Of a stretch of 58,931 nucleotides of DNA, positions 3,591-21,300 are shown piece by piece (position 1 is the first letter of the stretch; each line of letters opens with the position of its first letter). The position numbers and the translations under genes are program-made. The DNA is taken from positions 1 to 58,931 of IMG/VR virus record IMGVR_UViG_3300042466_000346. One strand, given 5' to 3'. The notes beneath the pieces are model-generated. The model saw nothing but the letters and a program-made list of their open reading frames with translations, had not been told where the DNA came from and did no database searches. The DNA comes from a virus (lineage: Duplodnaviria > Caudoviricetes).

Positions 3591-3596
3591 AACTTC

Positions 3597-3626
3597 TTGC
3601 GTTAATTTTTTAATATATTACTTTTG
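3597..3626 (+). promoter_or_regulatory. Bacteroidota sigma-A promoter (-33 TTG / -7 TAnnTTTG)
   Basis: TTG 3597-3599, 19-nt spacer, TACTTTTG 3619-3626. Confidence 0.8.
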
Positions 3627-3647
3627 AACCTAACCAAACCAACCAAC
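3627..3647 (+). promoter_or_regulatory. AACC-repeat 5' leader
   Basis: AACCTAACCAAACCAACCAAC immediately before ATG 3648; similar leader at 6446-6470. Confidence 0.55.
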
Positions 3648-4823
3648 ATGAGTACTAATGAAAACCCATTAGAGAATTTAGAGTTCTTTGAAACATTCTC
3701 CAGTGACGATCCAATTGATGCAGCGCCTCAATATGATCCCAACAAAAACGTTGCACCTGATATTTTAGGTGCAGATGGTAAAATTAAAGACCCCATCCTA
3801 GAACCAGATGACGAGGAGGAAGAGGAGGAAGAAAATCCAACTCCAGTTCCTGCTCCGAAGTCTACTCCAAAACCTCCTGCTAATCCTCTTAATGAGGACG
3901 AAGAAGAAGAGGAAGAAGAGTCTACTGGTCTAGAGGACAATGAAGATGATGAAGTTAACTACTTTGAAGTTTTCGGAAAAGGACTGGTAAAAGCAGGTAT
4001 GCTTGAACTAGAAGAAAACGAAGAAGTAGAGTGGACTGAAGAAACCTTCTTGTCTAAGATGGACGAGACCATTGAAAAGAAAGCTTGGGACACATTAGAA
4101 GGACTTGCAATGGAAACTTACGGAGAAGCCGGAGTTAAACTTGTTGAAGATATCTTCATTAATAAAGCACCTATCCAACAATACCTTCAGATGTTTGCTA
4201 ACCAGCAAGTAGTAGCAGATGTTGACTTGGATGACGTAGTTAACCAAGAAAGAGTTGTTCGTCTTTACCTAGCTAAAACAGGAATGGACGAGGACGAAAT
4301 TGAGGACCAAGTTACGTTTGCTGTTAACAATGATAAATTGGGAGCCTATGCACAGAAGTATCATGGTAAACTAGTTGAAAGACTGAACCAAGAGAAAGAT
4401 GCATTAGCCCAACAAAGCCGTGAGCAGGTTATGATGCAGAAGCAACGTGACCAAGAACGTGAAGAGTCTTACGCAGCTGTTCTAGAAAAATCTATCAAAT
4501 CTGGTGATATCGAAGGGTATCCCATTAATGAGAGATCAGCTAGCGACCTTTTCCAATTCGTTCTTGCCAAGCCTCACCAGTTACCCAATGGACAACGCAT
4601 TACTGAGTTTGAATACAAACTTGCTCGTATGCGCCAAGAAGACCCTTCAAAATTTTTAGCACTGGCACGTTTAGTTCAAAATGATTTGGACTTAACTCCC
4701 GTAAAGAAAAAGGGAGTTACAGAAGAAACTAACTCCATCTTTAATGAGTTGAAGACCAAAACAAAAAAGACAACTAAGAGTTCAAAGTCTGACCAAGACG
4801 TTTTCTCTAGGTACTTTAAATAA
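3648..4823 (+). CDS. Acidic scaffolding-like protein preceding the capsid gene
   Basis: Very acidic Pro/Glu-rich N-terminus, helical C-terminus, conserved position between portal and MCP. ATG 3648 preferred over TTG 3624, which lies inside the promoter. Confidence 0.65.
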   Translation: MSTNENPLENLEFFETFSSDDPIDAAPQYDPNKNVAPDILGADGKIKDPILEPDDEEEEEEENPTPVPAPKSTPKPPANPLNEDEEEEEEESTGLEDNEDDEVNYFEVFGKGLVKAGMLELEENEEVEWTEETFLSKMDETIEKKAWDTLEGLAMETYGEAGVKLVEDIFINKAPIQQYLQMFANQQVVADVDLDDVVNQERVVRLYLAKTGMDEDEIEDQVTFAVNNDKLGAYAQKYHGKLVERLNQEKDALAQQSREQVMMQKQRDQEREESYAAVLEKSIKSGDIEGYPINERSASDLFQFVLAKPHQLPNGQRITEFEYKLARMRQEDPSKFLALARLVQNDLDLTPVKKKGVTEETNSIFNELKTKTKKTTKSSKSDQDVFSRYFK

Positions 4824-4846
4824 AAAAATAAACACAAAATACTACT

Positions 4847-6391
4847 ATGCCAAATCTAAGTATGCCAAGGGTCAACGGGTCAGTTATAGCTAACGCCCAC
4901 ATGACCAGTTCTTACTATTCTAAGAATGGTTTGAACAAACTCACCGAAAAGAACTTCGTTGAGACAATGTTGAAGTCTAAGCCTGACCAGTATGACAAAA
5001 TGATGATTCGTTTGTTTACAGACACTCGTTTGTATTCTAACGATTTGATCGACCTTGTTATGAAGTCTGGTAAGCCTTTCTCTGTTAACGATCCTAATGG
5101 TGTTTTCACCTACAAGATCAAGAAGCGTGCTGAGTTGCCTAAAGTAATTGCTACTTACGCTGCCGGTTCTACTTCTGCTTTGCCTGCTAGACCAGGTATT
5201 GACGGACAAGAGTTTGACGTTGTTTTTGACAAGCAAGCTTTCAACGTGAACGACATTATCACTGCTCACCGCTACGAGCAAGAAACTCAAATCCAAATTG
5301 TTGCTGAGCCTGAGCGTTTCCAGAACGGTTTCAGATACCGTTGTCGTGCCGCTGGTTCAACTTCAGCTGACTTTGTTAACGTACGTTTCCTCGTTGTAGG
5401 AGTTGAGTACTTCAAAGTTGGTAACGTGTTGGGTGAGTACACTACCAGCTTCTCTGGTCTTGGCTTGTTCGACGGTAACTTGGAAGTAATGGCTGACGTT
5501 CTTAACCAATATGGTGTAGAGCACACTATTACTGACTGGGCTGATGCTACCAAATTGGGTGCACAAACTGATGCTACTGGTAATCCTTTGGATATCACTT
5601 ACTACTCTGTAACTGATGCTAATGCTGAAGGTGAAAAAACCAAGATTGTTGGTTGGGAGCCTACAGTATCTCGCTTGTTGCGTATGGAAATGTTGCGTAT
5701 GCGTGCCAACATGTTGATGTGGGGTCGTCAAGGTAACACTAAAGATGAAAAAGGTCGTCCAACTCGTTTGAAGCCAGGTTTGTGGCAGCAATTGCACTTG
5801 GGTAACGTTCTTTACTATGACCGTGGTCAGTTCTCTTTGAACCTTTTGCGTTCTGCTATCGGAGACTTGTTCTACAACCGTGTTAAATTGGCTGATCGTT
5901 ACGTAAAAGTATACACCAACCGTGCAGGTATGGAATTGGCTTCTACTGCTATCCGTAAAGATTTCAACAGCTCAAACATGACTTTGAATGCTGAGAAATT
6001 CATGGATGGTAAAGATCGCTTGAAGCAAGGTTATGCATTGCAGTTTGACCACTTCATGACTACTGAGACAGGTCCAGTAGAATTCATCGAATTGGAACAG
6101 TTGAACGAGCATGCTACTTTCTTGGAGTTGGGTCCTAACAAGAAGACTCCTCCAATCTTCATCATCATGGACGTAAGCAACGAAGGTGGTGCTAACATCC
6201 GTGAGGTGAAATTGTCTACTCGTCCTAACATGTACTACCAGTACATTGCCGGTTCAGTAGGATTCGGACAGTCACAAACTGTTATCGCCAACAAAGATCC
6301 ATACAGTACCTACATCATGAAGGACTTCTGTGGTATCTTCTTGGAAGATCCTACCCGTACCGTAATCATCAAAGAATACCCACGCTTGTAA
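4847..6391 (+). CDS. Major capsid protein (crAss-like)
   Basis: 514 aa, strong high-expression codon bias (AAC, TAC, TTG, CGT), crAss MCP-like segments (LMWGR, PGLWQQL, GIFLEDPTR), synteny. Confidence 0.88.
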   Translation: MPNLSMPRVNGSVIANAHMTSSYYSKNGLNKLTEKNFVETMLKSKPDQYDKMMIRLFTDTRLYSNDLIDLVMKSGKPFSVNDPNGVFTYKIKKRAELPKVIATYAAGSTSALPARPGIDGQEFDVVFDKQAFNVNDIITAHRYEQETQIQIVAEPERFQNGFRYRCRAAGSTSADFVNVRFLVVGVEYFKVGNVLGEYTTSFSGLGLFDGNLEVMADVLNQYGVEHTITDWADATKLGAQTDATGNPLDITYYSVTDANAEGEKTKIVGWEPTVSRLLRMEMLRMRANMLMWGRQGNTKDEKGRPTRLKPGLWQQLHLGNVLYYDRGQFSLNLLRSAIGDLFYNRVKLADRYVKVYTNRAGMELASTAIRKDFNSSNMTLNAEKFMDGKDRLKQGYALQFDHFMTTETGPVEFIELEQLNEHATFLELGPNKKTPPIFIIMDVSNEGGANIREVKLSTRPNMYYQYIAGSVGFGQSQTVIANKDPYSTYIMKDFCGIFLEDPTRTVIIKEYPRL

Positions 6392-6400
6392 TTTTAGCGG

Positions 6401-6436
6401 TCTATGACGGGGGAGGTAACACTCCCCCTTAATAGA
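6401..6436 (+). terminator. Stem-loop after MCP (terminator or stabilising hairpin)
   Basis: GGGGGAG/CTCCCCC stem 6409-6428 with outer TCTAT/ATAGA pairing; weak U tract. Confidence 0.6.
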
Positions 6437-6445
6437 TATAAAATT

Positions 6446-6470
6446 AACCAAAACCTAAACCAACCAAAAT
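6446..6470 (+). promoter_or_regulatory. AACC-repeat 5' leader
   Basis: AACCAAAACCTAAACCAACCAAAAT just before ATG 6472. Confidence 0.55.
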
Positions 6471-6471
6471 A

Positions 6472-7410
6472 ATGAAAGATATTGCCAGAGGGGTACGTAT
6501 TATTAAACCCTACAGAAAAGATCCCGGAACTAACTTGCGTACGTTAGAAGGATCATTGTACCAGAATGGTTACAATTTTATTCCAGGAACAGCTCGTAAG
6601 TTTTACCCTAGGGTAGATTCACGAGGAGTAATCAGAACCGGATTAGATGAGACTTCTCAAAAGTTGAAATCTATTTTGGATTTGAAAGTAAGAGAACAAG
6701 AAACTCAACGAGTAAAGCAACTTAAGGAATACTACGAAGCTTTATTGGATGAGTCCTTAGATCCTACTAGCACGTTCTATGACGAAATTAAAGATAATGG
6801 TATCGGCCTCGAAGATGGCGATAACATTTTTAACTTGGATAACCCAAGAGACGCTGTGAATTTTTACTGGCTCATGGAGACAGAAATGATTGCAGAGAAT
6901 CTTGATGCTATCGAGACCGGAACTGTAGACACCTCATTGGTAAAATTCTACGTGTTTGATGGTACAGTTGAATCTAAAGTTACGTTTGACCGTAAGAAGA
7001 AGATCAACAGTGCAATTGCATCTTTAGATAAGATGACAGCATCTAAGCGTAAGAAGATCCAAAAGTTGATCGGTTTAGGATTAGCTGCAGATTCTTCAGA
7101 AGAAGACATCTACATCTCCCTAGACGAGTACTTGCGTACTCCTGCATCATCTCTAGGAATGGACCCAATCGAGAACTTCTCTCGAATTACTGCATACAGC
7201 GATGATTTGTTAGACGTTAAAGCTTTGGTTAAGGACTTGTTAGATACAAACATTGTTAGAATTAAAGGTTCTATTATCTACGAAGGTGATAATGTTTGGG
7301 CCAAGTCACTTGAAGAGTTTGAACTTTTCTTGGCTGACCCTAAAAACACCGTAGAATATACTGCCTTTAAGGACAAACTGAAGAATAAATTAAAGATAAG
7401 CGCACTCTAA
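6472..7410 (+). CDS. Conserved crAss-like protein downstream of MCP (function unknown, likely assembly)
   Basis: 312-aa ORF in the conserved post-MCP slot; FNLDNPRD motif. Confidence 0.6.
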   Translation: MKDIARGVRIIKPYRKDPGTNLRTLEGSLYQNGYNFIPGTARKFYPRVDSRGVIRTGLDETSQKLKSILDLKVREQETQRVKQLKEYYEALLDESLDPTSTFYDEIKDNGIGLEDGDNIFNLDNPRDAVNFYWLMETEMIAENLDAIETGTVDTSLVKFYVFDGTVESKVTFDRKKKINSAIASLDKMTASKRKKIQKLIGLGLAADSSEEDIYISLDEYLRTPASSLGMDPIENFSRITAYSDDLLDVKALVKDLLDTNIVRIKGSIIYEGDNVWAKSLEEFELFLADPKNTVEYTAFKDKLKNKLKISAL

Positions 7411-7413
7411 TAA

Positions 7414-8130
7414 ATGATACCTGTAGAAGATCTGGTGTACGAGTTTAAGTTGATGATTAATAAAGTCAACAGACAGGATAACGTTGATATCCCTGTGGAG
7501 GACATTATTCTCTATTTGAACCGTGCCCAAATGTCTTGGATTAAAACAAGAATTAATCCTAACAACATCTACAAGACAGGGTATGAATCTATTAGAAAAC
7601 GCATTGATGACCTTCAAGTTCTGAAGATTAACAGTGCTAGCTTAAAACCCGTTAAAACTAACGACCTCTTTCATGTCGGATATGAATGTCCACTAGAAGA
7701 TGTTGCTAACTATATGTTTTACGTGTCGTCACATTGTGTGGGAAAGAAGCAAAACTGCTCCAAGAACATCTCAATTGACCTCGTAAGAGAAGGTGACTTA
7801 GATACTATGTATCTCGACGCAAACTTTAGCCCTTCATTTGAATGGAGAAGCACACTAGCTACCATAGGCAATAATAAGTTGTTCGTATACACAGCAGACG
7901 AGTTCGTTATTGAGAAAGTCTTTTTGACTTACTTAAGGTATCCAAAAAATATAGACATGGATGGCTATAGTAAGTTAGATGGAACTGACTCTATTAATCA
8001 GAACTGTGAGTTACCTGAATACGCTAAGGGAGACATTGTTGACCTGGCCGTTAAGTTTGCAGCACAATCTAATGATAATCAAATCCAAGCTGCATTTGCA
8101 GAGGATAGGTTAGTTAAAAACTCAGAATAA
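7414..8130 (+). CDS. Head-tail ring/adaptor protein (crAss-like)
   Basis: LNRAQ, GYESIRKRIDDLQVL, YLRYP and CELPE...IVDLAV resemble crAss ring proteins. Confidence 0.7.
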   Translation: MIPVEDLVYEFKLMINKVNRQDNVDIPVEDIILYLNRAQMSWIKTRINPNNIYKTGYESIRKRIDDLQVLKINSASLKPVKTNDLFHVGYECPLEDVANYMFYVSSHCVGKKQNCSKNISIDLVREGDLDTMYLDANFSPSFEWRSTLATIGNNKLFVYTADEFVIEKVFLTYLRYPKNIDMDGYSKLDGTDSINQNCELPEYAKGDIVDLAVKFAAQSNDNQIQAAFAEDRLVKNSE

Positions 8131-8141
8131 AACATAAAAAT

Positions 8142-9521
8142 ATGAATCACAAAATCACACAAGTGTTCGTAGTTGGTGGATCCGCTGCGACCGTAGACAC
8201 CTCCGCAGAAGCATTTCCAGGTACTGGTACTACAGATACCTTGAAGGCTCGCCAGTTGAACTTCTACAAGCCTGACTATTCTGTAATTGCTCGTGCAGCT
8301 GCAACTGCAACTATCGGTAACGATATCTTTGTTGCTGTAGGAACTTCAGATACTGTAGGTTCTAAGTTTGGTAGTTTCAAGTCTTCTGTAATCAAAAAGC
8401 AGAATTTGACTCGTGTTACTAAGAGTGTTTACAACAACACTACTAGACAGCAGATTACCTTCATTGGTTATGATGAAATCACTGCCAGCAAAACTCCTTC
8501 TTTTGCTTGTGACGAAGAGTACTTCGTAACTTTCAAAATTGATGAGTACTGGTCTAAGGGTATTTATCAGCCTTTGATTCAAGAGTCAGTTCGTGTTAAA
8601 ACTACTTCTTGCACAGAGTGCGGTGGTGGTTGCGATGCTTTGAACTGCTGGGCTTTCATGCAGGAATTGACCGACAAAATCAATGCTAACCCTATCTTGA
8701 GTAAGTACTTGAGTGCTACTCACTCTATTGTAGGTTCAGCACCAACTTACCGTTATGTATTGAACTTGCCTGACTCAGGTGATTCAACTGCAGAAGCAGC
8801 TACTTTAACTGCATTGCAGGCTTACTACCCATCTGGAACTTATGGTACCATCACTGAGACCAACACCGAAGATGCTGACTCTACTGGTCAAATTTTCTTC
8901 ATCATTGCTACTCCTTTGGTTGCAATTGAGAACATGCCTGTTTACAACGGTATTGCTTGGGAGAAACAGTTGGTATCTGCAGGTTCAGTAACTTCTTGCG
9001 GTATCAAAGTAACTGGTAAAGCAGTTGATGCTTTTGGTAACGCTTGCGTACCTGATGCAGTTCCTTACGTATTCAACTTGGTTAAGTTCCAAGCTAAAGT
9101 ACACAGAGGTCCTTTCAACTCTCAAGATTTTGATATCGATGATATGCAAACTCCTTGGGCTATCACCACTGTACAAAGCATCCAGTACCCAATTGGTGCC
9201 GTAAGTGCTTTGGCTGAGATGGAGCGTAACTACTTCACTAATAACTTGCCTGCAGTTGCAGAAGCTCGTTACTACTGGAACCCTATCTACAACGAAGCTG
9301 CTAACCCATTCTTCTTCGTAGATCAGACCCGTACTGCAAGTGGTTACACTATGTTCGAAATCTGCTACACAGATCCTTCTCCAGTTGGATTTGAGAAGAA
9401 AGACTTGAACGAGCATGCGGTTGTGTTGTTGGTAGATGCTGCAGTTTCCAGTTTGGTTGCTGACGTACAGATCTTCTTGAACAACTTCTTGAGCGGTTCT
9501 GCGTTGCCTCAATTGGTATAA
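8142..9521 (+). CDS. Abundant structural protein, probable auxiliary capsid protein
   Basis: 459 aa, MCP-like codon bias, followed by a strong terminator; position matches the crAss auxiliary capsid gene. Confidence 0.6.
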   Translation: MNHKITQVFVVGGSAATVDTSAEAFPGTGTTDTLKARQLNFYKPDYSVIARAAATATIGNDIFVAVGTSDTVGSKFGSFKSSVIKKQNLTRVTKSVYNNTTRQQITFIGYDEITASKTPSFACDEEYFVTFKIDEYWSKGIYQPLIQESVRVKTTSCTECGGGCDALNCWAFMQELTDKINANPILSKYLSATHSIVGSAPTYRYVLNLPDSGDSTAEAATLTALQAYYPSGTYGTITETNTEDADSTGQIFFIIATPLVAIENMPVYNGIAWEKQLVSAGSVTSCGIKVTGKAVDAFGNACVPDAVPYVFNLVKFQAKVHRGPFNSQDFDIDDMQTPWAITTVQSIQYPIGAVSALAEMERNYFTNNLPAVAEARYYWNPIYNEAANPFFFVDQTRTASGYTMFEICYTDPSPVGFEKKDLNEHAVVLLVDAAVSSLVADVQIFLNNFLSGSALPQLV

Positions 9522-9528
9522 TCTTAAC

Positions 9529-9555
9529 GGGGAGGATTAACCTCCTCCCCTTTTT
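9529..9555 (+). terminator. Intrinsic terminator
   Basis: GGGGAGGA/TCCTCCCC stem followed by TTTTT. Confidence 0.8.
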
Positions 9556-9579
9556 ATCACCCTTTAATTTAAATAAAAA

Positions 9580-10041
9580 ATGAAAGATATTATTCTAAAA
9601 ACAGGCACCCATACCGTAGCTGTAACTAACAAGGATGTAGCTTCTGGAAAAATCCCAGGAACTTCTCTTGAGAAGTTTGTAGTTAACTTGCTGAAGAACC
9701 CTAGCTGTTGCGCTAAGTTTGTAGTATTGACCAAAGGAACTGTAACTCAAGGCACAAGTGTTACGACTGCAGTTACTTTGAATCAACCTGCTGGCGAACT
9801 TGTAACATTCTCTTTGGCTGCTATAGCTGCAGATACTACTGCAACCTTTACTGTAAACAACTCCTTCGTTAAGGCAGATTCATTGATTCTTGCTAACGTA
9901 GTTGATTGGACAGGCAGTACCGGTTTCCCTCTAATCATCGTAGATGATGTTGTTGCTGGTTCATTTAAGATTAGCATCAGAAACGTGTCAGCATCTGCTG
10001 CACTTGATGGTGTTCTAACTGTTGGATTTGCAATCATGTAA
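9580..10041 (+). CDS. Small beta-rich structural (head fibre/decoration-like) protein
   Basis: 153 aa, T/V/A-rich beta character (TFTVNNSFVKADSLIL, GSFKISIRN); flanked by terminators. Confidence 0.5.
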   Translation: MKDIILKTGTHTVAVTNKDVASGKIPGTSLEKFVVNLLKNPSCCAKFVVLTKGTVTQGTSVTTAVTLNQPAGELVTFSLAAIAADTTATFTVNNSFVKADSLILANVVDWTGSTGFPLIIVDDVVAGSFKISIRNVSASAALDGVLTVGFAIM

Positions 10042-10047
10042 TTTAAC

Positions 10048-10073
10048 GGGGTGGGAAACCACCCCTTATTTTT
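10048..10073 (+). terminator. Intrinsic terminator
   Basis: GGGGTGG-GAAA-CCACCCC followed by TTATTTTT. Confidence 0.8.
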
Positions 10074-10078
10074 AAACT

Positions 10079-10585
10079 ATGCCAAACGTAAAATTAAACC
10101 TCGAAGTATACAAAGCCAAAGACTGTGGATTTATCTCAGTACTTGACACATCTTTTTACCCTATTGCTCCTGACACTGCTAACCTACAGGTAGATGTCCC
10201 CGGATACGACACTCCTTTTGAGTTTGAGTTTGTTCTGGGAGAAGTAAACATTCTAAATGCATATACTTTTGGATGGGTAGCATCAGAAGATACTGTTGGT
10301 GAGTTGCCTGATGGGGTTTATAATTTCGTATTGACAACATGCCCTGATTTAGGCATTAATAGCAGATTCCATTTGCGGACCTGCAAAATCGATTGCCGTC
10401 TTGCAGTACAGTGGGCAAAGTATGTTGACTGCTGTGATGACGAGAAAATGCTTTACTACTTAGATAAAGTGGATTTCTTACTCAGAGGAGCTGAGGCTCA
10501 GGCTGATTTGTGTAACCCTGTAAAAGCTACCGAGCTTTATCGTAAAGCTGATGACTTACTCAGAAGAATTGAACTTGACTGTTAA
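10079..10585 (+). CDS. Conserved structural protein (Ig-like N-terminus, helical C-terminus; vertex/hub-like)
   Basis: LPDGVYNF motif and Cys-containing helical tail; position in the structural module. Confidence 0.5.
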   Translation: MPNVKLNLEVYKAKDCGFISVLDTSFYPIAPDTANLQVDVPGYDTPFEFEFVLGEVNILNAYTFGWVASEDTVGELPDGVYNFVLTTCPDLGINSRFHLRTCKIDCRLAVQWAKYVDCCDDEKMLYYLDKVDFLLRGAEAQADLCNPVKATELYRKADDLLRRIELDC

Positions 10586-10739
10586 GAAAAAACTTGCCAA
10601 TGCTGCTTACAAAGAGTTGCAGCATATCAAGTACTTAACAAAACCATACCATAGAAAGTCTAGAAAGTATGCTAGTTTCCTTAGATACCAGCATTGCCTA
10701 GACTGCGACACAACTTTAAACTTTAAAACAAAACACTAA
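10551..10739 (+). CDS. Small basic hypothetical protein
   Basis: 62 aa, fills the gap between two genes, CxxC motif. Confidence 0.45.
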   Translation: MTYSEELNLTVKKKLANAAYKELQHIKYLTKPYHRKSRKYASFLRYQHCLDCDTTLNFKTKH

Positions 10740-10740
10740 A

Positions 10741-11307
10741 ATGGCTAAATGTTGTCAAACTAATAACTGTGTAGAGATAGAACCTTCTGGTTGTGTCAAG
10801 TACACTGGCACGCCTACTGCTGGCGGGCTGATTGATAAGCAGGATTACTGCGACCCCTATCTTAATGATATTATCAAGTTGTTTGATGACAACTTGACCT
10901 CTTTAGATGTACGAGTAGGTATTGATAAAACTGCTTTAGATGCAGTCAATACTTCTTGTGGAATTACTCCTGTAATCAACACAACTACTATTACTGTAAA
11001 AGACGAGAAGTATTATTCTTCTCAGGTTGTTCTTAAGTTGTTGGAGGTTGTATGTGAACTAAGGTCTCGCTTAAATTACCTTACTAGCGAAAATACTAAC
11101 ACTAACTTAGGCAACCTTCATTGGGAAGAAATGCCTTTGAGTACAGGATTTATTGCTTGGCTTAATAGTGTTAATCCAGAAACAGGTGTAACGTATGCCC
11201 AGTGTCTTGGAAACAACGTATGCGACCCTAATACAGGCTTGCTTACTTTAGGAGATTTATTGAAAGCAATCATTAACAAACTGTGCGACTGCTGCACTAT
11301 TCAATAA
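10741..11307 (+). CDS. Cys-rich fibre-associated structural protein
   Basis: C-x7-CVKYTG motif shared with the next gene; ends LCDCC. Confidence 0.5.
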   Translation: MAKCCQTNNCVEIEPSGCVKYTGTPTAGGLIDKQDYCDPYLNDIIKLFDDNLTSLDVRVGIDKTALDAVNTSCGITPVINTTTITVKDEKYYSSQVVLKLLEVVCELRSRLNYLTSENTNTNLGNLHWEEMPLSTGFIAWLNSVNPETGVTYAQCLGNNVCDPNTGLLTLGDLLKAIINKLCDCCTIQ

Positions 11308-11315
11308 TATAAGAA

Positions 11316-13244
11316 ATGGGACATTGCGTTGATTGTTACGGAACCTCTACAATAGCACCATGTGCTACAGTAGGGTGCATATCTACTAACTACGGTAAGT
11401 GTATCACTTACTCTGGCGTAGATTTATATTGCTCTCTAGGAGCTGTTGGAACATTTACTACTGCAGGTACTGCGGTTGTTCCCGGAACTACTACAGTTTA
11501 CACTTTAGGTGGAACTAACGTAAGTGGTACTGGAACAGGTGCTACCTTTGAAGTAACTCGTACAGTAGGTACTAATACCTACACAGTAAAAATTGCTAAC
11601 CGTGGTTCTGGGTATGCAGTAGGAAACCAAGTTAAAATCTTGGGTACATCATTAGGTGGTGCTACTCCTGCGAATGACGTGGTATTCACTATTACTGCTT
11701 TGAATCCAGTAATTGCTTCTGGTGCAGTTCTAGATGATATTATCACTAGTTTCCACAATGCTTTGTGTAGTGGATTAGCTGGTGGTGGTTTGGATTACTC
11801 TTCCTTAAACTACTCATGCCTTCGTCAGTCAGGTGTATTGACCGGTATTGGTACTGCAATTACAACTGAAGCTCAGTTTGTTACTTCTGCATCCGCTGCT
11901 TTGTGTTCTTTGTACACAACTTTGAATGCTTACGATACTACTGTAAATATTAGCTCATTCACTAACGTAGGTTCTTTGCCTGGAGTAACTGCTCCTTACA
12001 ACCTTAATGAAGTATTAGGCGGAGTTGCAACTGCAATCACTACTATTAATAGTGGCTTGAACTACGCTTCTATTACTTCTAATCCTTGTGTAGCTTACGC
12101 ATTCACCACTAAACCTAGTACTAGTGTAGTAGCTGACTACTTTAACTGGATTACTACTAACATGTGTGGTATGTTCCAGAGTCTTACTACAAGCATTGGT
12201 ACCGTAAGCACACTTGCTACTTCACTGAAGACTTATATTTCTGGTGTTTCTGCAGTTCCAGCTAACGTTGATACTTCTGTATTGGTGGGAGGTTCTGCAA
12301 CTAGTACAGCTTCTGCTGCTTTGATTCTTTTGATTTCTCAAGTAGATTCTTTGAACAGTTCTGTATCTACTCTTACCACAAATAATCTAAGTCTTACTTG
12401 GGCATCTTGTTTTGGTGGTACTTATCCTAGTAACTCTGTATTTAAAACTCAGACCTGGAACTGGTCTAATGCCTCTGTAAGTCTTCAAACTCAGTTGGAT
12501 AGAATTGTTTCAGTTCTTGCTACACTGAATATAAAGTTTGATGCAACTCAATTCACAATTACTACTGGTGCTTGTGGTCCTACTATTGCTTTGGCAGCAG
12601 GTGTTGCTTTCAGTGCTGCTAGTTTGAACGTTTGTTTATTGGATAACCTAGGTGACGTAACTGCGCCTACGCCTGCAGGTGGAGACTTCCTAGTAAGAGA
12701 CTCTTCTATCAGCCCTAATCACTGGAGAAACAAAACCTTCACCATTAAACTAAACGGTGCTACTGCTAATGTAACTCGTACAGATACCTCTACTAATGTT
12801 GAGTTTGACCTCGCAGTACTTGATAGTACTCCTGTGGCTCATCCTTTGGCAGGTGTAAGTGCTGCTACATTTAACGTAACAAATGCTGTTCGTTTTCCTG
12901 CCGGTAGCGTTGGTTTTCCTCACGGATATAAACATGGCCAAGTAGTTGCATTGCATGGGGTACTTCAGATGAACATTACTGCCCCCTTCTCATTAGCTCA
13001 CTTGGGTGTGTTAAACATAGCAACTATTCCCACAGCAATTAGACCTGCAGACCCAGTATACTTTAACGTAGAACTTTATGTTAAGGTGGGTGCTAGTTAT
13101 TCTAACGTCTACACCAGAGCAACTGCTCAATTGGACACTGCCGGTAACTTTGCTATCGTATTAATGAACCCAGCGGGATCACTTGCTCTTACATCAGGCG
13201 ACTTAATTGAAGTTGTCATCGGAGGTAATAGCTACGCTTTATAA
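11316..13244 (+). CDS. Tail fibre-like protein
   Basis: 642 aa, T/S/A/G-rich, C-x7-CITYSG N-terminus, C-terminal receptor-binding-like domain (VALHG...IATIPTAIRP). Confidence 0.6.
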   Translation: MGHCVDCYGTSTIAPCATVGCISTNYGKCITYSGVDLYCSLGAVGTFTTAGTAVVPGTTTVYTLGGTNVSGTGTGATFEVTRTVGTNTYTVKIANRGSGYAVGNQVKILGTSLGGATPANDVVFTITALNPVIASGAVLDDIITSFHNALCSGLAGGGLDYSSLNYSCLRQSGVLTGIGTAITTEAQFVTSASAALCSLYTTLNAYDTTVNISSFTNVGSLPGVTAPYNLNEVLGGVATAITTINSGLNYASITSNPCVAYAFTTKPSTSVVADYFNWITTNMCGMFQSLTTSIGTVSTLATSLKTYISGVSAVPANVDTSVLVGGSATSTASAALILLISQVDSLNSSVSTLTTNNLSLTWASCFGGTYPSNSVFKTQTWNWSNASVSLQTQLDRIVSVLATLNIKFDATQFTITTGACGPTIALAAGVAFSAASLNVCLLDNLGDVTAPTPAGGDFLVRDSSISPNHWRNKTFTIKLNGATANVTRTDTSTNVEFDLAVLDSTPVAHPLAGVSAATFNVTNAVRFPAGSVGFPHGYKHGQVVALHGVLQMNITAPFSLAHLGVLNIATIPTAIRPADPVYFNVELYVKVGASYSNVYTRATAQLDTAGNFAIVLMNPAGSLALTSGDLIEVVIGGNSYAL

Positions 13245-13250
13245 GATATT

Positions 13251-13320
13251 GACAGGATTTTTTGGTTGGTTACCCCTGTCTAATTACTAGTCGGAGCCTA
13301 GGAAACTAGGCTCTACTGGT
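13251..13320 (+). ncRNA. Putative structured intergenic RNA (two hairpins)
   Basis: Hairpin 1 GACAGG(13251-56)/CCTGTC(13275-80) with loop ATTTTTTGGTTGGTTAC; hairpin 2 13286-13320 with core GAGCCTAG-GAAA-CTAGGCTC. Expression is unproven. Confidence 0.4.
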
Positions 13321-13331
13321 TTAAGTAAAAC

Positions 13332-13361
13332 TTGACTAAAATTGAAATTTAATTATATTTG
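13332..13361 (+). promoter_or_regulatory. Bacteroidota sigma-A promoter
   Basis: TTG 13332-34, 19-nt spacer, TATATTTG 13354-61. Confidence 0.8.
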
Positions 13362-13375
13362 TAATAACGAGTGTT

Positions 13376-14017
13376 ATGTTAACTAATGGAGATTTAATCG
13401 CAAGAGTGAAAAGTGCTAATAAATTCATTACTAGCGATGACCTTATTAGTGACCGTTTCATTTATAATCTACTTAAATCAAAGGCATCTGTCTTGATTAA
13501 AAGGGAGATTAACTTGAAAAAATTATTAATGTCTGATAGTATTTATCAGGCATACGAGTGTATTTGTTTGATAGAAGCACCTGGTGCGGAATGTGATTTA
13601 GGTTGCCCTATTCGCAGAACAGCTAAAAAATTACCTAAGATTGAAGAAGGATTATATTCCTACTTTATTCAAGGTGTATTTAATACCTCAAACTCTGAGG
13701 AGTTGTTTCCTACCAGTATCCGTGACTTTATCAATCACAGTCGGCTTAGAGTAAAAACCAACCGTTCCTATTATACTATCCGTAATGGATACCTCTATGT
13801 TTTGAATCCAGACGTTGAGTCTGTAAACATGTATGCCTACTTTACTGAAAGCATCGAAGACATGGATGGTACCCAATGTTTAAGCATGTACGATAAGGAG
13901 TTCAAGATAGCTGCTTATTTGGTAGATGGTTTATTGCAACTTGTTAACCAAGATCTAATTAACTACCATAAGATGCCTGTTGAACAAGAGGATAACAATA
14001 GGGATGAACAAATGTAA
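13376..14017 (+). CDS. Tail ring protein (crAss-like)
   Basis: 213 aa; DDLISDRFIY, RTAKKLPKI, YYTIRNGYLY; precedes the IHF-like gene as in crAss phages. Confidence 0.65.
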   Translation: MLTNGDLIARVKSANKFITSDDLISDRFIYNLLKSKASVLIKREINLKKLLMSDSIYQAYECICLIEAPGAECDLGCPIRRTAKKLPKIEEGLYSYFIQGVFNTSNSEELFPTSIRDFINHSRLRVKTNRSYYTIRNGYLYVLNPDVESVNMYAYFTESIEDMDGTQCLSMYDKEFKIAAYLVDGLLQLVNQDLINYHKMPVEQEDNNRDEQM

Positions 14018-14019
14018 TT

Positions 14020-14469
14020 ATGGAAGTTAGCCCAAAGAAGTACAAGACCTACCGATCCGACGTAAACTACTCTAACAAAAAAGCTTACAATCAGTTTCTA
14101 AAAGAAACAAAACGTTCTGATATTACCTACGAAATGTTTAGTAAGATTCCTCAAATGGTGCATGAGAGGATGATTAGTAAAATGTATTCAGGTGCTTACT
14201 CTGTTCGCATCCCTAAGCTAGGGTTGTTCCGTTTACTTAAGGTAGCTCCCTTTGGTGAACCACATGCAACCATTGACTGGGGTAGATATCGTAAGACAGG
14301 CATCTGGGCACCATATCGTAACACCCACACTGACGGGTATATCTATAAGGTTCACCTTTATAGTTATTCCAAGAAGTTCCCTGAGTTAGGATTCTTTAGA
14401 TTCAGACTCGCAATAAAGCACCAAAGACATTTAGCCCAATTGATAAAAAATAACGAAATACACCGATGA
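14020..14469 (+). CDS. IHF/HU-like DNA-binding protein (crAss tail-module type)
   Basis: Basic 149 aa; VRIPKLGLFRL, IDWG and NTHTDGY motifs; synteny. Confidence 0.65.
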   Translation: MEVSPKKYKTYRSDVNYSNKKAYNQFLKETKRSDITYEMFSKIPQMVHERMISKMYSGAYSVRIPKLGLFRLLKVAPFGEPHATIDWGRYRKTGIWAPYRNTHTDGYIYKVHLYSYSKKFPELGFFRFRLAIKHQRHLAQLIKNNEIHR

Positions 14470-15302
14470 AGTACGAAAATATAAACTTCATATCTTCTGA
14501 GCCAATTGTGGCGGAAGTTAAACAAGAACTTAAGTCTTACTTCGAGGCAGGTGCTATTAGTGAAGTTTTGATTCCTACTTTCATTGACCAGTCCTTGCGT
14601 AAGCTTAAGGTAATGGTTCTTCAACCTGAAGAGACTGTAGCTCACTTTGTAAACTATAAGTCAGAGCTTCCTTGTGATTTTGCACTTCTAGATAGAGCTG
14701 CTTTGTATGATTCTCAGATAGAGTTTAGTTCTGGTATCACTACTATGAATGGGTACTTCTACATGTCTTCAGACTGTTCCTTCAGTGGAGAGTGTTGCAA
14801 TGATAAAACAGAGTACTTCGAACAAATCTTTGTATCTAATCCAGGCTTTAAGATTAGCATGAAGATGCCTAGGCCTATCCGTGTTTACCATGGATCTAAG
14901 GCATTATGTACAGAACAGTGTGCTAACTTGTATGCACCCGGCCCAGACATTATCCAGATTAATAACAACAGGACTATGTCTGCTTCTTTTGAGGAGGGCT
15001 GTATTTATGTAAGATACTTTGCTAGACCTACGGATGAATTTGGTATTCCTAAGATTCCTGAAATACTAGAAGTCGAAGAGTACATTAAGGCTTATCTTAA
15101 GTTTAAATTCTTTGAGATGCTTTGGCATTCTCAGTTAGATGAATCTGCTGCTCAGATTGAGCGTAAGTTTCAATACTACAAACAAGACCAGCTTGCTAAA
15201 CTACAGGCAGCATTTGGGTACTTGTTGACTAAGACTAAACAACAGAGTGCTGATAGCGTTGTGAAGGCACGTAATAAGTTTGTTAAATACCATATCATTT
15301 AA
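14466..15302 (+). CDS. Tail tubular/ring protein (P22 gp4-like)
   Basis: ASFEEGCIYVRY, DEFGIPKIP and EEYIKAY motifs; directly upstream of the stabilisation protein. Confidence 0.7.
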   Translation: MKYENINFISSEPIVAEVKQELKSYFEAGAISEVLIPTFIDQSLRKLKVMVLQPEETVAHFVNYKSELPCDFALLDRAALYDSQIEFSSGITTMNGYFYMSSDCSFSGECCNDKTEYFEQIFVSNPGFKISMKMPRPIRVYHGSKALCTEQCANLYAPGPDIIQINNNRTMSASFEEGCIYVRYFARPTDEFGIPKIPEILEVEEYIKAYLKFKFFEMLWHSQLDESAAQIERKFQYYKQDQLAKLQAAFGYLLTKTKQQSADSVVKARNKFVKYHII

Positions 15303-18300
15303 TGGAAAATAAAGTAAATCAGAATATCATTGGTCTTAACCTGGACTCTATTAACTGGCAAGTTAAGGAGAACCAGATTACATGGGCTTTAAATGCTAAT
15401 GTGCAAGCTCATGACGGTGACTCTGTTACTTACACAAATGAACCCAGCAACACAGAATGCTTTAGATTTGATCAAGGCACTTTGTCAGGATTTATTGTAG
15501 TAGGATTTACTAATATTATTGAGCAGTCTAAGGTTATTCTTTTCCTTACTCACCCAGACGGACGTTCTCGCATAGGTCAGATTACTGCTCTAGGCGATTC
15601 TTGTTTAGGTGTAGAAGTTACTGAAGAAGATTGTGGATGTAAGGCAGGTACCATCGTCACTACAGCTACTGTTGTAACAGACCTACCTGCAGATGAAGTT
15701 ACTTTACAGTGTCCAGATGGCTACTTCTATGATGCAGTTACTAACCTCTGTAAGAAGGTTCAATACGTTCCTATCGACGAAAGCTCTCAAACACTACCTG
15801 TAATTGCTACTTGCGTTAACGGAAGTGGTTGTGGTGTATTCTCTACCCACGGTTCTTTCTTACCTAACGTCTATACTAGCGCATACTCTACGTTAACACC
15901 TTCAGACTACTACACAATCAAAACTGAGTTACCTACACCTACTGGTACCAACTTTTGGAATCCTAATGGTATAGGTGTATTTAACGTAGCTACTTACTTA
16001 AAGAGTATTGCAGTACAAGCGGATTTAAATCCAGGAGGCGGACTATGTCGGGAGTGTCACACAATTAGTACTGTAACTCCTGAGAATCCTTCGGGGTATA
16101 TTGGTTTTGCTGAGACTGTTTGTATTGATCAAACCAAGGAGTATTATATGTCTTTGGCTGGAGACGAAGCTCTTCGTGTCTATATTGACAACGTTTTAAT
16201 TTTTGACTTTGATCCTGTAACCCCTTCTAAGATTCTAGGAGGAGCAGCATCTAATCTTTGGTCAAGACTTCACTTCTTTCCAATTACTTTAACTGCTGGT
16301 AGACACGTATTCAGGTTTGAGTACAAAAACACTGCAGGTATTGGTATGTTTGCTTATGAGGTATATGATATCTCATTGGCTCAGTTGCTTGACCCAAATC
16401 TTACTCAAGCAATCTTAACTGCATCTATTGCTCGTAGTAATGGTGAGCAGATTAGTTCTTTGCCTAAGAGAGGTTCTTACTTCACAGAGACGGAGAATGC
16501 TTGTCCAGACGGGTACATACTAACTGTAGACGAAAACTGCGTAGCATCTTGTAGTACTGTAATTACCGCAGAGAGAGAAGAGGTTACTGTTTCTTCTACT
16601 TGTTGTAAGTATGAGGATATAATCATTGACAATTGTTTAGACGAATGTGAACAGTCTTGTTACGAGTATGTAGTAGGATTAACAATAGACTTAAGTATTG
16701 AAAATACCGCTCTTGAAAAAGATTTTACTTACGAAGACTGTGCAGGCAATATTGTTCGTGACTTTATTCTAGGTGAACCTAAACGATTTACAGCTAGAAA
16801 AGGTACACTACTTTTAGAAGGGCCGTACATAGAAATACTTCAAGAAGTTCAAGTAGAGGATACTACCCCTGGAGTATTTTCTAAAGGCAACTGCTGTTTA
16901 AATTTTGATCCTGCCTTCCCAGTGAATGCGGAGTATCGTATAGATGACTGTGAAACCAAAGTTTATTATATTAGTAGGAATAATCCACCTCGCTATTTTT
17001 CTGATTTGTATCCTTATGGAAAAGACGCCTGTGGGAAGAATCGTACGTGCATTAGAGAAAGCTGTGAGGATTCTAAGCTATTTCCTAATTTCTGCATCCC
17101 AGAAGTTCACGCTACCTCTGTAGATAGTGGAGGTATGCTGGCAGCAGGTGCCTACTCGTTTGCTATAGCATACTGTGATGAGAACGGAGATGAGTTTGTA
17201 GATTATACAGACTACACCAACCCTATTCCAATTTTTGAAAGGACTATTACTGAACAGACAGAGTATGTAACCTCTAAGTCTATCACAGTTAATGTTAAAC
17301 ATAAGACTCGCATATTTGAGTACTTCAGTTTAGTAGTAGCAGAAACAGTAAACACAACTAACACATATCACCTAGTAGGTGTATACCGGGTAAATCAGGT
17401 CACAGACCAAGACACTGTAATCTATACAGGTGATTATAAAACTACTTTCTCTACAGTTGCTCCTGTAGTTAGAAGCCCTAGATACGATACTGCTAACATC
17501 ATTGAGAAGCAGAATGATATCTTGATGCTTGCTGACTTAGAAGAAGCTCCTAGATACAACTTCCAGCGTTTTGCTAGTAGATTGAAACTACTTTGGGAAA
17601 CTGTGAATATGCCGGCTGATGGACAGTTTGATTACTCATCCCCTGAAGTTGCTTACTTCTTTAGAACCTACCAGAGGGATGAGGTTTATCCTTTCGGTAT
17701 TAAATTCCGAATGAGTAATGGTAAGTACACTGATGTATTCCATATTCCTGGAAGAACTACGTTTACTGTTTTACCTCAGAATATAAATTTTGGAGATACT
17801 ACCTTACTAGATGGATCAAGTAACTTAGATGTATTTGTAGCGCAGACCGATTGTACTATCCCTGATCAACTGCCAGTTTGGAAAACATACAATACGGCTT
17901 CTCCTGGAACTAGTGTTGACTATGATGAGGACTTAGCATCGGATATTGAGAAACAATACAACTGTGCTATCACTAATGGTCTTCAAGGTGAGTTTGCTTA
18001 TTGGGAATCTACTGAGTTGTATCCTTGTTATGATGAGATATGGGAACAGTCTACTGACCCTAATGCTCCTTACTACAACCCAGAAGCATTAGCAGGCAAA
18101 CCTATTCGTCACCACAAGTTTCCCGACTCAGCTATTACCCACATTCATGACCATGACATTGCTTCTGGATCTACAGCGGATTCAGGAATTGGTGTAGAGA
18201 GTCCAAGTATATTGCATCCTATTGGAGTTCGTCTAGATGAAGCATCTTTGCTTAGTCTATTAAACCAAAAAAATCCAGACGGAACCTACGCTTACACTGT

Positions 18301-21300
18301 ATACGATCCTATCAAACGCAAGGAGATACCCATCAAAGATGTTATCTGCGGATATGAACTTGTACGAGGTAACCGTGTAGGTAATAAGTCTGTAATTGCT
18401 AAAGGATTACTTTATGATGTAGGAGAGTACTTTGATACTACTAATGATAAGAAGTATTACTACTCTAACTATCCCTACAATGACTTACGTGTAGATCCTT
18501 ACTTGATGAATGCTTCTCGTTGGTATGATGAGTCTAGAGAAATATTCCTTACCGACTCAGCTTTTATTGACGGTATCGGACGTGTAGGTGGATTCAGAAC
18601 TTACGACTTTAATGGAGGTAACAACAGATTTACTTTCTACTCCCCTGACACAAGTTTCCAGTTTCCTAAAATTGGTACAGAATTAAAACTTGAGACTGTA
18701 GAGTTTGGTAGAGTACTCGGACACTTTGTTCCCGTAGCTGAACATCCTCAGTATAGATTTTTGCAGGAAGGTGCGTTCAGAGATGCGGGACGTTTGTCTG
18801 CTATCTTATCAGCAAACGTTTCAGGATCTACTGAAGTGAGTGCAACAGTAACTGGTGGATTTGCTAATGGTTCTCGTTTTGATGTTCGCTACGATAAGCT
18901 TCTTGCTAACGAGCAGGTAATGCTTGATTTAATAGGTAAACTGATTCCGTTTGTAAATTTTGCTTATCAGTATAATTCTATTGCAAACTATAATCAGTAC
19001 GTACCTATCAATCCGTTGGCTACAGTTCCACACTTCGGTAGTAGTCGTAGATTTATTGAATTAGGTTATTACGCTAATGAAAGAATCGTTCAGGTATTTG
19101 ACGATGCTCCATTACATAATCGTTTAAGAGAAACTTCTGTTTACCTCAAGGTAAAAGACTTTATTAAAAACATTGAGTCTCAATTACTAGATAACTCTAG
19201 ATACGTTACATCTGCTACAACCTTAGTAGATGAAACAGGCGCTACTGTTAGTGACGAGGGTCATACATTAAACGCAACTACTGAACATCAAAGACGTACT
19301 ACCCGTGCTTACTATGGTTCTGTTAAACGTCAGTTTCCAAATCAGTATGGTCAGGTAGAAAACATTAAGTATGTTTCTACTGGGTATGCAGTTGATTTGT
19401 ACAGAACTGCTGGAGGTGGTGTGAGTCTTGAGTATAAGTATTATCCTGCTTTTGGTGGAGACACATTCATTACTCCTTTCTCCTTTAAGCGTAAACATTC
19501 TTTCTTTACAAGAAACTTAGTTAATCTTCCTGCCAAGGTAGATGAAGTACCATTTGATTACTGGTTATTCCCTAACATGGCATACCCAACCTACTACATT
19601 GGTACCGCTAGTAATGTTAATGCTATCAGTGGTTCAGAGATTGCAGTTGCTTTTGCTTTCGTAGCTGCAGGAGTTGGTGCTGGTATTGCTGGTATATCAT
19701 TAGGCGGAGCATTGGCTGTTGTGGGCGTGTATGCGCTTAACTTAGGAATCATGGAAGGCTTGAATGAACTCTGGAGTAAGTTTACTAAAAAGACTACTCT
19801 CGATGGTTCTAGTGACCACAGATACTATCAGGATGGTCACTTCTATACAGCCTCTTACGGGCTACCTATATTCTTTGTAGAGTCTGATGTTAATACTCAT
19901 TTTCGTCACGGTAGGGATACTGATAAAGAAAACTTCTACCCCAACGTAGGTGGGGGTATTCCTGATGATTGGTTGCAAGAAGCTACGGTACCTATCAAGT
20001 ACGATAACTTCTACCACTATAACGCTACTTACTCTGCCCAGAACTTAAGTCCTAACATGCCTTACAGGTTGAAGTATCCTTCCTTGGAGTGTTTAGTGAA
20101 TCACCAGAATCGTGTGATCTACTCAGACCAAGCAAGTAAATCTAATCTGTTGACAGACAAGTGGCTTAACTTCCGTCCAGGGAACTTCTATGATTTCCCT
20201 AAGCAAGGTGGTCGTTTAATTGATTTGAATGCCGGTGAAAGCGAAAGAGTATATGCTCGTTTTGAAAACACTACCAAAGTATACAATGCACGTATTGTAC
20301 TTACCTCTACTTCTCCTTATCAGTTGGAGATAGGTAACGCAGATATGTTCAAGCAAAAGCCTGTTGACTTGGCCGCTACTGACTTAGGTTATATCGGAAG
20401 CCAACACAAAGCTTATGTACGTTGTGAGTATGGAACCTTCTGGGTAGATGCTAAACGTGGACACGTGTATCAAATCACAGGAGACGGATTCAACGAAATC
20501 AAATCAGAGTTGAACTACAACTGGTTCAAAGAAAATCTACCATTCCAGATAATCAAAGATTTGCCTGAGGCAGATGTTGACGTGCCTTCTTTAGGTATTG
20601 GTATTACTATGGGATGGGATGAAAGATTCGAGCGTGTATTTATTACCAAGTTAGACTACAGAGTTAGACCTGAGTTTAGGAAGGGAAATACATCAGAGAT
20701 ACTTTACATTAACGATAGACTAGATCCTAACTACAAATACTATGTATTGAAGACCGGAACCACTGTCACTAGAGTTTCTTTATTCAACGGTACTTACTTT
20801 GAGAATAAGTCTTGGACAGTTGCTTATGCACCCAAGTTGAAAAACTTTATCTCCTTCTATTCTTTCTTGCCAAATTTCTATGTAGCTCAGTTGGGTCACT
20901 TCCAAACAATCACAACCACCGCTGCAGGAAGTTCACTTTGGAACCACAACCTACACCCGTACTTGTATCAGACTTACTATGGTAAGTTATATCCATACAT
21001 CATCGAGTATGCGGTTAACAGTCTTCCAATTAACTCTATCTTGACTTCAGTTTCTTTGATTGCAGAGATCCAAGAATACTACAGCAAGACCGAGTACTAC
21101 TCTCTGGGTACTGCGAACAATAAAAATATTGCCAACTTTAACAAGGCTATCATCTACAACAGAGAACAGTCTTCAGGTATTATTAACTTGATACCGGAAG
21201 TGTTTGGTAATACTAGACAGAAGCTTCTGTATCCTAGAATGGGAACTACTGGCATCGAGACTTTGTTATCTCGTAGGGAGAACAAGTATACCTTTAATGG

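Follow-up and report, generated by a model that had tools for sequence, protein, structure and literature searches.

The window analysed here is the whole of IMG/VR record IMGVR_UViG_3300042466_000346 (58,931 bases), about half of the genome of a crAss-like phage with a Bacteroidota host. Between the last gene of the capsid operon and the gene for tail-ring protein 2 (Ring 2), the window carries a hairpin (hairpin 1) whose loop consists only of U and G across 13258-13271 and is complementary to the leaders of the two genes that flank the capsid gene, here called the pre-capsid and post-capsid genes. The loop-leader complementarity in this genome is more than chance, and the loop, judged by its conservation among relatives, is under strong purifying selection. 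We propose that the loop acts as an antisense seed that represses leaders lacking a Shine-Dalgarno sequence, either in trans, as a small RNA derived from the 3' end of the operon transcript, or in cis. We hold this proposal tentatively and put its chance a little short of even.

Loop-leader complementarity in the window

The leaders, the genes behind them and the hairpins are positioned as follows (nt, nucleotides; aa, amino acids; bp, base pairs).

3627-3647, + strand: pre-capsid leader AACCTAACCAAACCAACCAAC, only A and C, directly after a promoter; 3637-3646 complements the loop over 10 nt
3648-4823, + strand: pre-capsid gene, 391 aa, acidic N-terminal half with E-runs
4847-6391, + strand: major capsid protein gene (Crass_capsid), between the two complementary leaders
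6458-6469, + strand: post-capsid leader AACCAACCAAAA, 12-nt perfect complement of the loop, ending 2 nt before ATG 6472
6472-7410, + strand: post-capsid gene, 312 aa, without a family match
13251-13280, + strand: hairpin 1, 6-bp stem (GACAGG 13251-13256 with CCTGTC 13275-13280) and 18-nt loop (13257-13274)
13286-13320, + strand: hairpin 2, 15 bp with one bulge and a GAAA loop, then only TTT

The proposed seed, TTTTGGTTGGTT, occupies 13260-13271 within the hairpin-1 loop. On the pre-capsid side, AACCAACCAA (3637-3646), 1 nt before ATG 3648, complements 10 nt of this seed. Among the 30 called genes of the window, the pre-capsid and post-capsid genes are the only ones with AACC-repeat leaders. 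This agrees with the initial annotation, whose letters and coordinates for the loop, both leaders and the hairpins are all correct on re-reading.

A/C-only leaders pair only with U/G-rich RNA, and composition therefore had to be controlled. Start regions, defined in the window as positions -30 to +15, make up 1.1% of the strand positions. In all tests they come from a simple caller of open reading frames (ORFs; first ATG, at least 50 aa, greedy by length), and wrongly called starts are noise for real and shuffled queries alike. Among 1000 composition-preserving shuffles of the 30-nt hairpin, 0.5% find a 12-nt complement in any start region, and 0.4% find two start-region matches of 10 nt or more. 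With at most one mismatch, the 12-mer occurs five times in the window, compared with 0.44 expected, and none of 100 shuffles reaches five; the two other one-mismatch sites lie inside genes. The bare 8-mer GGTTGGTT is weakly enriched in the window (5 versus 1.72 expected; 2 of 100 shuffles reach 5).

The energies of pairing agree with the counts. In G001, a rebuilt 110-kb genome nearly identical to the window, the post-capsid leader ranks first among 109 start regions in RNAduplex (-16.4 kcal/mol) and the pre-capsid leader ranks fifth (-14.5 kcal/mol). In cofolding, the two-hairpin RNA gains -7.7 kcal/mol with the post-capsid and -5.4 kcal/mol with the pre-capsid start region; the control start regions of the capsid and Ring-2 genes give -0.2 and 0.0 kcal/mol. 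The hairpins themselves are well defined: region 13235-13335 folds into the two of them at -33.2 kcal/mol (z -4.24), and none of 200 shuffles folds equally well.

Conservation and complementarity across relatives

A scan of IMG/VR with Ring 2 gives 49 related loci (51-99% identity) with 32 distinct intergenic sequences. The loop core GGTTGGTT is kept in 31 of these 32 and TTGGTT in all of them, down to a Ring-2 identity of 51%. This conservation equals that of the boxes of the Ring-2 promoter, in which TTGA and TATATTTG are invariant in 32/32 and the spacers vary. The hairpin-1 stem is 92.9% paired and mostly conserved in sequence, with a double change, from locus L044, in one of seven pairs. 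Hairpin 2 has compensatory double changes in 12 of 15 pairs (10 of 13 in RNAalifold) and, on this evidence, is an RNA helix with good covariation support. In an alignment fitted to the model, the whole structure is 93.5% paired; shuffles give 87.7%, and none of 500 is as high. A capsid-protein profile, searched for more distant relatives, returned the same clade only (capsid identity 65% or more).

A covariance model finds exactly one copy of the element per genome in the window and five complete relatives (601,018 bases). An apparent extra copy in G002, a weak match at 23 bits, was rejected as an ordinary terminator. The weakly matching site (L112:9683-9756, minus strand; about 109.7 kb in G002) has an ORF of 5 codons that opens with ACCAACCAA-ATG and leads directly into a strong terminator (GGGGC...GCCCC TTTTT). 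In L004 and L040, a 10-nt insertion, CTAACCAACG, lies between hairpin 2 and the -33 box (about 9930-9945); by its letters it complements the hairpin-1 loop in cis and could form a local alternative pairing.

More AACCAACC leaders lie beyond the window, in G001 and four more relatives (G002-G005; all five genomes are 90-94% complete). The chief one is that of g111 (111-126 aa), which is located about 6.4 kb upstream of the pre-capsid gene and is the first gene of a unit with the terminase and portal genes (packaging operon). A Bacteroidota promoter of its own precedes g111, and the leader directly follows the -7 box. The antisense idea of the initial annotation stands in that the complementarity exceeds chance and the loop is strongly conserved, but the target set is wider than the two leaders that it named. 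In G001, the 8-mer has 10 sites on the sense strand of the surrounding genes, of which four end at most 4 nt from a start codon, two more lie at most 30 nt upstream, and one directly follows an ATG. The G001 genome as a whole shows no enrichment of the 8-mer (14 sites; backwards control, 11). Just upstream of the large terminase, a 70-aa gene opens ATG GAA (A)AC CAA CCA ACC (G001 22484-22498, G003 16173-16188), which places AACCAACC directly 3' of its start codon; this is kept in two clades.

The pre- and post-capsid leaders are A/C-rich in all relatives, and CCAACC is kept in most clades. In four of the five genomes the best start-region complement of hairpin 1 beats 300 shuffles: P is 0.010 in G001 and 0.003 in G003, and 0 of 300 shuffles match it in G004 and in G005. 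The best match genome-wide falls in a start region in G003-G005 (three of five genomes), compared with 6-12% of shuffles. By duplex energy, the g111, pre-capsid and post-capsid start regions rank 9/5/1 of 109, 9/10/5 of 116, 4/2/15 of 118, 1/3/2 of 110 and 8/3/7 of 133 in the five genomes, and their energy sum, compared with 200 loop shuffles, gives P 0, 0.09, 0, 0.005 and 0. Two candidate targets were rejected: the best genome-wide match of G002 sits in codons 6-12 of the gene after Ring 2, not in a start region, and the 13-nt match at 17235 in G003 lies inside the large terminase gene, not in a leader.

Loop and leaders show matching changes in two lineages. In the G004 clade, the 3' side of the hairpin, GGTTGGTTGTCTGT, meets the g111 leader ACAGACAACCAACC in a 14-nt match located 5 nt before the ATG. 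G005 has the loop TTTATTGGTTTT and three leaders with the ending AAAACCAAT-ATG; this genome also has a lineage-specific 70-aa ORF with a 19/20 match that spans its ATG. At L040, a T-to-A change in the loop (TTAGGTTGGTTT) meets CCTAA in the leader AAACCAACCTAA, over 12 nt. That complementarity is kept in relatives, partly by such matching changes, is borne out in four of the five complete genomes, but the G002 clade shows no excess. The G004 clade has a pre-capsid leader that itself forms a hairpin; at L030, L032-L037 and L045 this is a 5-bp hairpin (GACAA...TTGTC) that abuts the ATG and shows ACCAACCAAC in its loop (e.g. L034:143-172; about 30 nt before the ATG). From its letters, this leader hairpin is a possible kissing (loop-loop) partner of hairpin 1.

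For permutation, 49 capsid-anchored loci were collected; 39 with all four elements give 24 distinct combinations, and 10 incomplete loci were dropped. Hairpins paired with their own leaders exceed permuted pairings over the 24 loci, with P 0.0046 for the sum of longest complements and P 0.0004 for the energy sum, in a test that ignores relatedness. With the same disregard of relatedness, 0 of 5000 permutations match the own pairing of g111 alone. When each of the 7 clades is represented by a single locus and all 5040 permutations are run, P is 0.007-0.059 over three choices of representatives. By energy, the pre-capsid leader alone gives P 0.015.

At a greater distance, synteny extends to Cellulophaga phages phi17:2_18 and phi4:1 (portal, gene 067, gene 066, gene 065, ring 3/4), with 067-065 as positional equivalents only. 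Their module before Ring 2 (24% identical) has a hairpin of 9 bp whose 12-nt loop is U5-GG-U5, a second hairpin followed by U8, and a TAgaTTTG promoter. Among 178 start regions, the best match of the Cellulophaga loop is gene 065, at the post-capsid position (AAAACCAAAAA, 11-nt complement), and gene 067, at the pre-capsid position, ranks ninth. FpV4 and Fpv1 have neither the hairpin nor an intergenic gap before Ring 2, and FpV4 is without AACC leaders; the gut phage csAssE-Sib has neither hairpin nor AACC leaders. Lbo-JY46 has a single terminator at that place and no hairpin, with A/C leaders of the AACAACAA type (without CC) on the equivalent genes. By this presence and absence, two lineages have both the hairpin and CC-containing leaders, and two have neither. 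It is possible, if somewhat doubtful, that the element, at the end of a capsid/tail-fibre operon, is an ancient phage 'anti-leader' RNA common to freshwater crAss-like and marine Cellulophaga phages, which would tune a late-gene regulon by RNA-RNA pairing.

Lbo-JY46 was deposited as a Leptolyngbya phage, with a cyanobacterial host. It has Bacteroidota-style -7 boxes, TATCTTTG and TAACTTTG, before its Ring-2 and pre-capsid homologues (L135:1430-1476, L138:1650-1681), and also a crAss-type order of structural genes. The host assignment may deserve a second look.

Proposed mechanism and alternatives

The rest of the operon, and the start of the unit that follows it, are arranged as follows.

3597-3626, + strand: capsid-operon promoter, Bacteroidota-type, TTG-N19-TACTTTTG, kept upstream of the pre-capsid gene in relatives
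6409-6428, + strand: G+C-rich hairpin GGGGGAG-gtaaca-CTCCCCC just 3' of the capsid gene, with an equivalent in relatives
9529-9550, + strand: strong intrinsic-terminator-like site within the operon (terminator scan)
10048-10065, + strand: second strong intrinsic-terminator-like site within the operon (terminator scan)
11316-13244, + strand: last operon gene, 642 aa, stop codon 13242-13244, 6 nt upstream of hairpin 1
13332-13361, + strand: promoter of the next transcription unit, whose first gene is that of tail-ring protein 2; Bacteroidota-type, TTG-N19-TAtaTTTG (TTGAC-N17-TATATTTG)
13376-14017, + strand: tail-ring protein 2 gene (CrAss_Ring_2), the first gene past the hairpins

Hairpin 1 is followed on its 3' side by TAATTAC and, because no U run follows, is not itself a terminator. 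Hairpin 2 suggests a terminator-like or 3'-end-stabilising element that may terminate weakly despite its TTT-only tail; an intrinsic-terminator scan of the window called neither hairpin. The second GAAA-capped hairpin and the new promoter behind it are present as the initial annotation described them. Rfam gives no match overlapping 13246-13325 at E up to 10, and five weak matches elsewhere have E 0.45 or more. The 5' arm TTGACAG was considered as a promoter and dropped, with no TAnnTTTG box at the right distance.

From the promoter positions we infer that 3627-13320 may be one transcript, with three internal hairpins or terminators in between. The transcription unit that carries the U/G loop at its 3' end would then begin with a leader that complements this loop over 10 nt. 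The capsid operon has three G+C-rich hairpins (6409-6428, 9529-9550, 10048-10065), of which the latter two have T5 tails. They look like graded attenuators that would make expression fall along the operon; the first is likely an attenuator upstream of the post-capsid leader.

Under the antisense proposal, the capsid/assembly operon would carry at its 3' end a conserved RNA element, hairpin 1, with its open U/G-only loop as the seed. The targets would be the A/C-only leaders, without Shine-Dalgarno sequences, of the pre-capsid gene, the post-capsid gene and g111, and the pre-capsid leader would be the 5' untranslated region (UTR) of the very operon that ends in hairpin 1. Pairing would span about -13 to -2 before the start codon. 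Bacteroidota initiation needs an unstructured A-rich leader, and pairing should therefore block 30S loading, which would lower translation. As described in PMC6847099, initiation in F. johnsoniae is tuned by start-region structure and by upstream adenines at -3, -6, -12 and -13. In the trans mode, an RNA of about 75 nt, comprising hairpin 1 and hairpin 2, would be left from the 3' end of the operon transcript; in the cis mode, pairing would take place inside full-length transcripts. By analogy, a U/G seed held open in a loop beside a stable terminal hairpin is the architecture to be expected of an RNA that masks A/C leaders. We infer that the RNA accumulates, pairs and acts negatively.

The initial annotation had called the two targets probable assembly factors, a description to be taken as tentative: the pre-capsid product appears scaffold-like by its acidic composition only, and the post-capsid product has neither a family nor a fold match. 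The AlphaFold2 model of the latter has a mean predicted local distance difference test score of 65.2 and matches no fold in the PDB at E ≤0.001 (best, a 60-residue stretch of RecA at E 0.26). Searches of Pfam, PHROG and PDB sequences give no match for the pre-capsid, post-capsid, g111, g88, g70 and 642-aa genes.

Several observations weigh against an antisense role. Both partners are of low complexity (A/C-only versus U/G-only), and part of the complementarity therefore comes from composition. In the most populous clade (L008/G002), the leaders are AAACCAAACTAACC and AACCAAACCAA (CCAAACC or CTAACC) and the loop is unchanged; the best start-region complement of G002 is no better than 300 shuffles (P 0.473), and its energy sum gives P 0.09. 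About half of the distinct g111 leaders of this clade still have CCAACC. The gene with the best-matching start region differs from genome to genome. When just the loop and the two window leaders are compared, own pairings do not exceed permuted ones (P 0.23, 0.41, 0.20 and 0.09; 23 loci), and the pre- and post-capsid leaders taken alone give P 0.84 and 0.58 for the longest complement. The excess of own over permuted pairings is seen with the hairpin and three leaders (24 loci) but not with the loop and the two leaders that the initial annotation named. For the Cellulophaga phage, whose genome is AT-rich, the shuffle test does not reach significance (P 0.75 and 0.77). Lbo-JY46 has A/C-rich leaders without the hairpin, and the leaders therefore do not need it. 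With two strong terminators inside the operon, the hairpin RNA should be rarer than its targets, and the tail of hairpin 2 in the window is TTT only, for which a consensus scan gives no terminator call.

The transcript data bear on the 3' end of the operon to a limited extent. Three RNA-type runs (X18-X20) were compared over 1-20000 as Logan contigs, which show neither ends nor levels. The contigs cover the capsid gene and parts of 7630-10714. X19 and X20, on record as RNA, have no contig over 11340-13340, a further point against the proposal, in contigs that are uninformative on the presence or ends of a hairpin RNA. X18, probably DNA, has trace depth only over the same region. Metatranscriptome contigs from two freshwater studies cover 4860-5900, 7630-9174 and 9512-9908, the capsid gene and parts downstream of it.

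Hairpin 1 may instead be conserved for another job, as a protein site, for RNase processing or 3'-end protection, or as a helper of termination or antitermination, with the complementarity a by-product of two low-complexity motifs. Late leaders would then be A/C-only because such leaders are unfoldable and hence well translated without a Shine-Dalgarno sequence. Conservation of both stem and loop in sequence, with one of seven stem pairs doubly changed, is as for a protein-recognised hairpin, and the loop is constant in the G002 clade, where the leaders drifted. The order of stop codon, hairpin 1, hairpin 2, promoter and Ring 2 is kept even in the Cellulophaga phages, and the A/C-rich leaders of Lbo-JY46 and the negative loop-only covariation test fit this account too. 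We nevertheless think it rather unlikely. It leaves unexplained why there are extended, lineage-specific complements in start regions with non-A/C letters and stem nucleotides among them, why own pairing exceeds foreign pairing at clade level, and why the same positional genes recur as best-matching leaders at 24% Ring-2 identity; moreover, no Rfam family matches the hairpins.

The pairing could also be real and have a positive or structural effect. The 3' loop would join the extreme 5' leader of the same mRNA in a closed loop, or other late 5' ends, and would protect from 5'-end-dependent decay or couple stability to translation. The operon that ends at the hairpin starts with a complementary leader right after promoter 3597-3626, the g111 leader directly follows a promoter -7 box, and interactions between 5' and 3' UTRs are described as controlling the stability or translation of the hbs mRNA from B. 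subtilis and the icaR mRNA from S. aureus (PMC5737220, PMC3868564). The positions of the pairing make this improbable: it covers the nucleotides just before the start codon, and in G005 the ATG too, and should get in the way of 30S binding. The post-capsid target lies within the transcript instead of at a 5' end, and with the internal terminators few transcripts would have both ends.

A role in DNA is very improbable. A regulator that binds double-stranded DNA might read AACCAACC/GGTTGGTT in either orientation, with TTGACAG...CTGTCAA, some 70 bp upstream of the Ring-2 promoter, as its dimer operator; the motif adjoins Bacteroidota promoters at three sites, and the arms are a perfect inverted repeat that is still palindromic after the change in L044. 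However, the motif is strictly in sense orientation in the leaders and strictly in antisense orientation in the hairpin, conservation is higher in the spacer or loop than in the arms, and the post-capsid site has no promoter. In the leaders, the distance from the motif to the ATG is short and fixed, fitting a role in RNA or translation, and the adjacent hairpin 2 covaries as RNA.

We give just as little credence to the absence of any specific function, that is, to an ordinary operon-end structure with a leader match noticed by coincidence. The motif was chosen post hoc, the 8-mer counts (14 versus 11 in G001, 5 versus 1.72 in the window) amount to no genome-wide enrichment, and G002 and the Cellulophaga phage fail the shuffle test. 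Coincidence does not account for a loop that is kept at a Ring-2 identity of just 51-88%, for P 0.005 in the window and 0.01 or lower in four of five genomes, or for a hairpin 1 that, without a U run, is not itself a terminator.

The alternative offered by the initial annotation, a minus-strand transcript that shows AACCAACC in its loop as a decoy for a leader-binding protein, profits from a sequence symmetry that lets the hairpin form on either strand, but is extremely improbable, with 30/30 window genes on the + strand, no minus-strand Bacteroidota-type promoter near hairpin 1 (the three matches, at 55564, 25664 and 10113, are far off) and a score of just 14.8 bits for model R1 on the minus strand there.

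Known systems and genome setting

An antisense loop at the end of a late operon would resemble several known systems in part. Enterobacterial small RNAs of the CpxQ, SroC, DapZ and MicL type derive from 3' UTRs. Like them, the module has a conserved seed between the last stop codon and the putative terminal hairpin of the mRNA, the seed is the best-conserved part, and several targets would be paired at their start regions. Unlike them, the module is phage-encoded in a late structural operon, has its seed in a hairpin loop, includes genes of the same operon among its targets, and is known here from sequence alone. Firmicutes small RNAs with C-rich loops (RsaE, RNAIII type) pair with G-rich Shine-Dalgarno sequences. 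The loop of hairpin 1 likewise carries the complement of a generic ribosome-loading motif, so that several mRNAs could be reached, but with the opposite chemistry: U/G faces A/C leaders, as befits a phylum in which Shine-Dalgarno pairing is not used. In lambda sib retroregulation and at the T7 intercistronic hairpins, RNase III cleaves the hairpin itself. There too, as proposed here, a structured element downstream of a phage gene block controls upstream messages; the means proposed here is loop-leader complementarity and not RNase III cleavage.

The nearest parallel in the host phylum is GibS, which is described as repressing B. thetaiotaomicron mRNAs that lack a Shine-Dalgarno sequence, by start-region pairing and without Hfq or ProQ (PMC7366714). 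A difference from the enterobacterial small RNAs is that the host phylum is without Hfq and ProQ (PMC7366714). GibS and the proposed RNA would have in common pairing around the start codon that represses such mRNAs with no known chaperone; as described there, GibS is an intergenic host small RNA with a long single-stranded 5' seed (PMC7366714), and the two have no sequence relation. In S. aureus icaR, a 3'-UTR motif complements the ribosome-loading region of the same transcript, as would be the case here, but the motif described is anti-Shine-Dalgarno and the mRNA monocistronic (PMC3868564). In the phage, a U/G loop would meet an A/C leader without a Shine-Dalgarno sequence across about 9.7 kb of polycistronic RNA with internal terminators, and further targets lie on other transcripts.

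A literature search turned up no regulatory RNA of crAss-like phages, which is a weak negative. If the proposal is true, this would be the first regulatory RNA described for these phages and an RNA route by which translation could be controlled where, as in this phylum, Shine-Dalgarno sequences are ignored, with a reach that might extend to host mRNAs with similar leaders. How translation rates are set in Bacteroidota and the phages that infect them without Shine-Dalgarno pairing is, according to PMC6847099, still being worked out. If the pairing is real, it would offer a simple, testable case in which an abundant phage group sets virion-protein stoichiometry after transcription, a leader regulon of g111, pre-capsid and post-capsid genes, and a portable seed/leader pair with which expression in Bacteroidota could be engineered. 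Cultured Cellulophaga phages have the module, and the hypothesis is therefore bench-testable.

The gene content of the window comprises the large terminase, the portal, the Crass_capsid major capsid protein (4847-6391) and crAss tail-ring proteins 3/4, 2 and 1; the simple caller places all 30 genes on the + strand. Intergenic promoters of the Bacteroidota type (TTG-N17-21-TAnnTTTG) are found at 3597, 13332, 27346, 46878 and 55350. The search for DNA-level similarity of the window to deposited phages found none. By Ring-2 protein, Flavobacterium psychrophilum phages, at about 30% identity, and Cellulophaga phages, at 24%, come nearest among cultured relatives; the phage itself is found for the most part in metagenomes from lake water. 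The tail/virion part of the window holds very large ORFs of 2081, 4703 and 2810 aa (15302-21547, 32762-46873 and 46913-55345).

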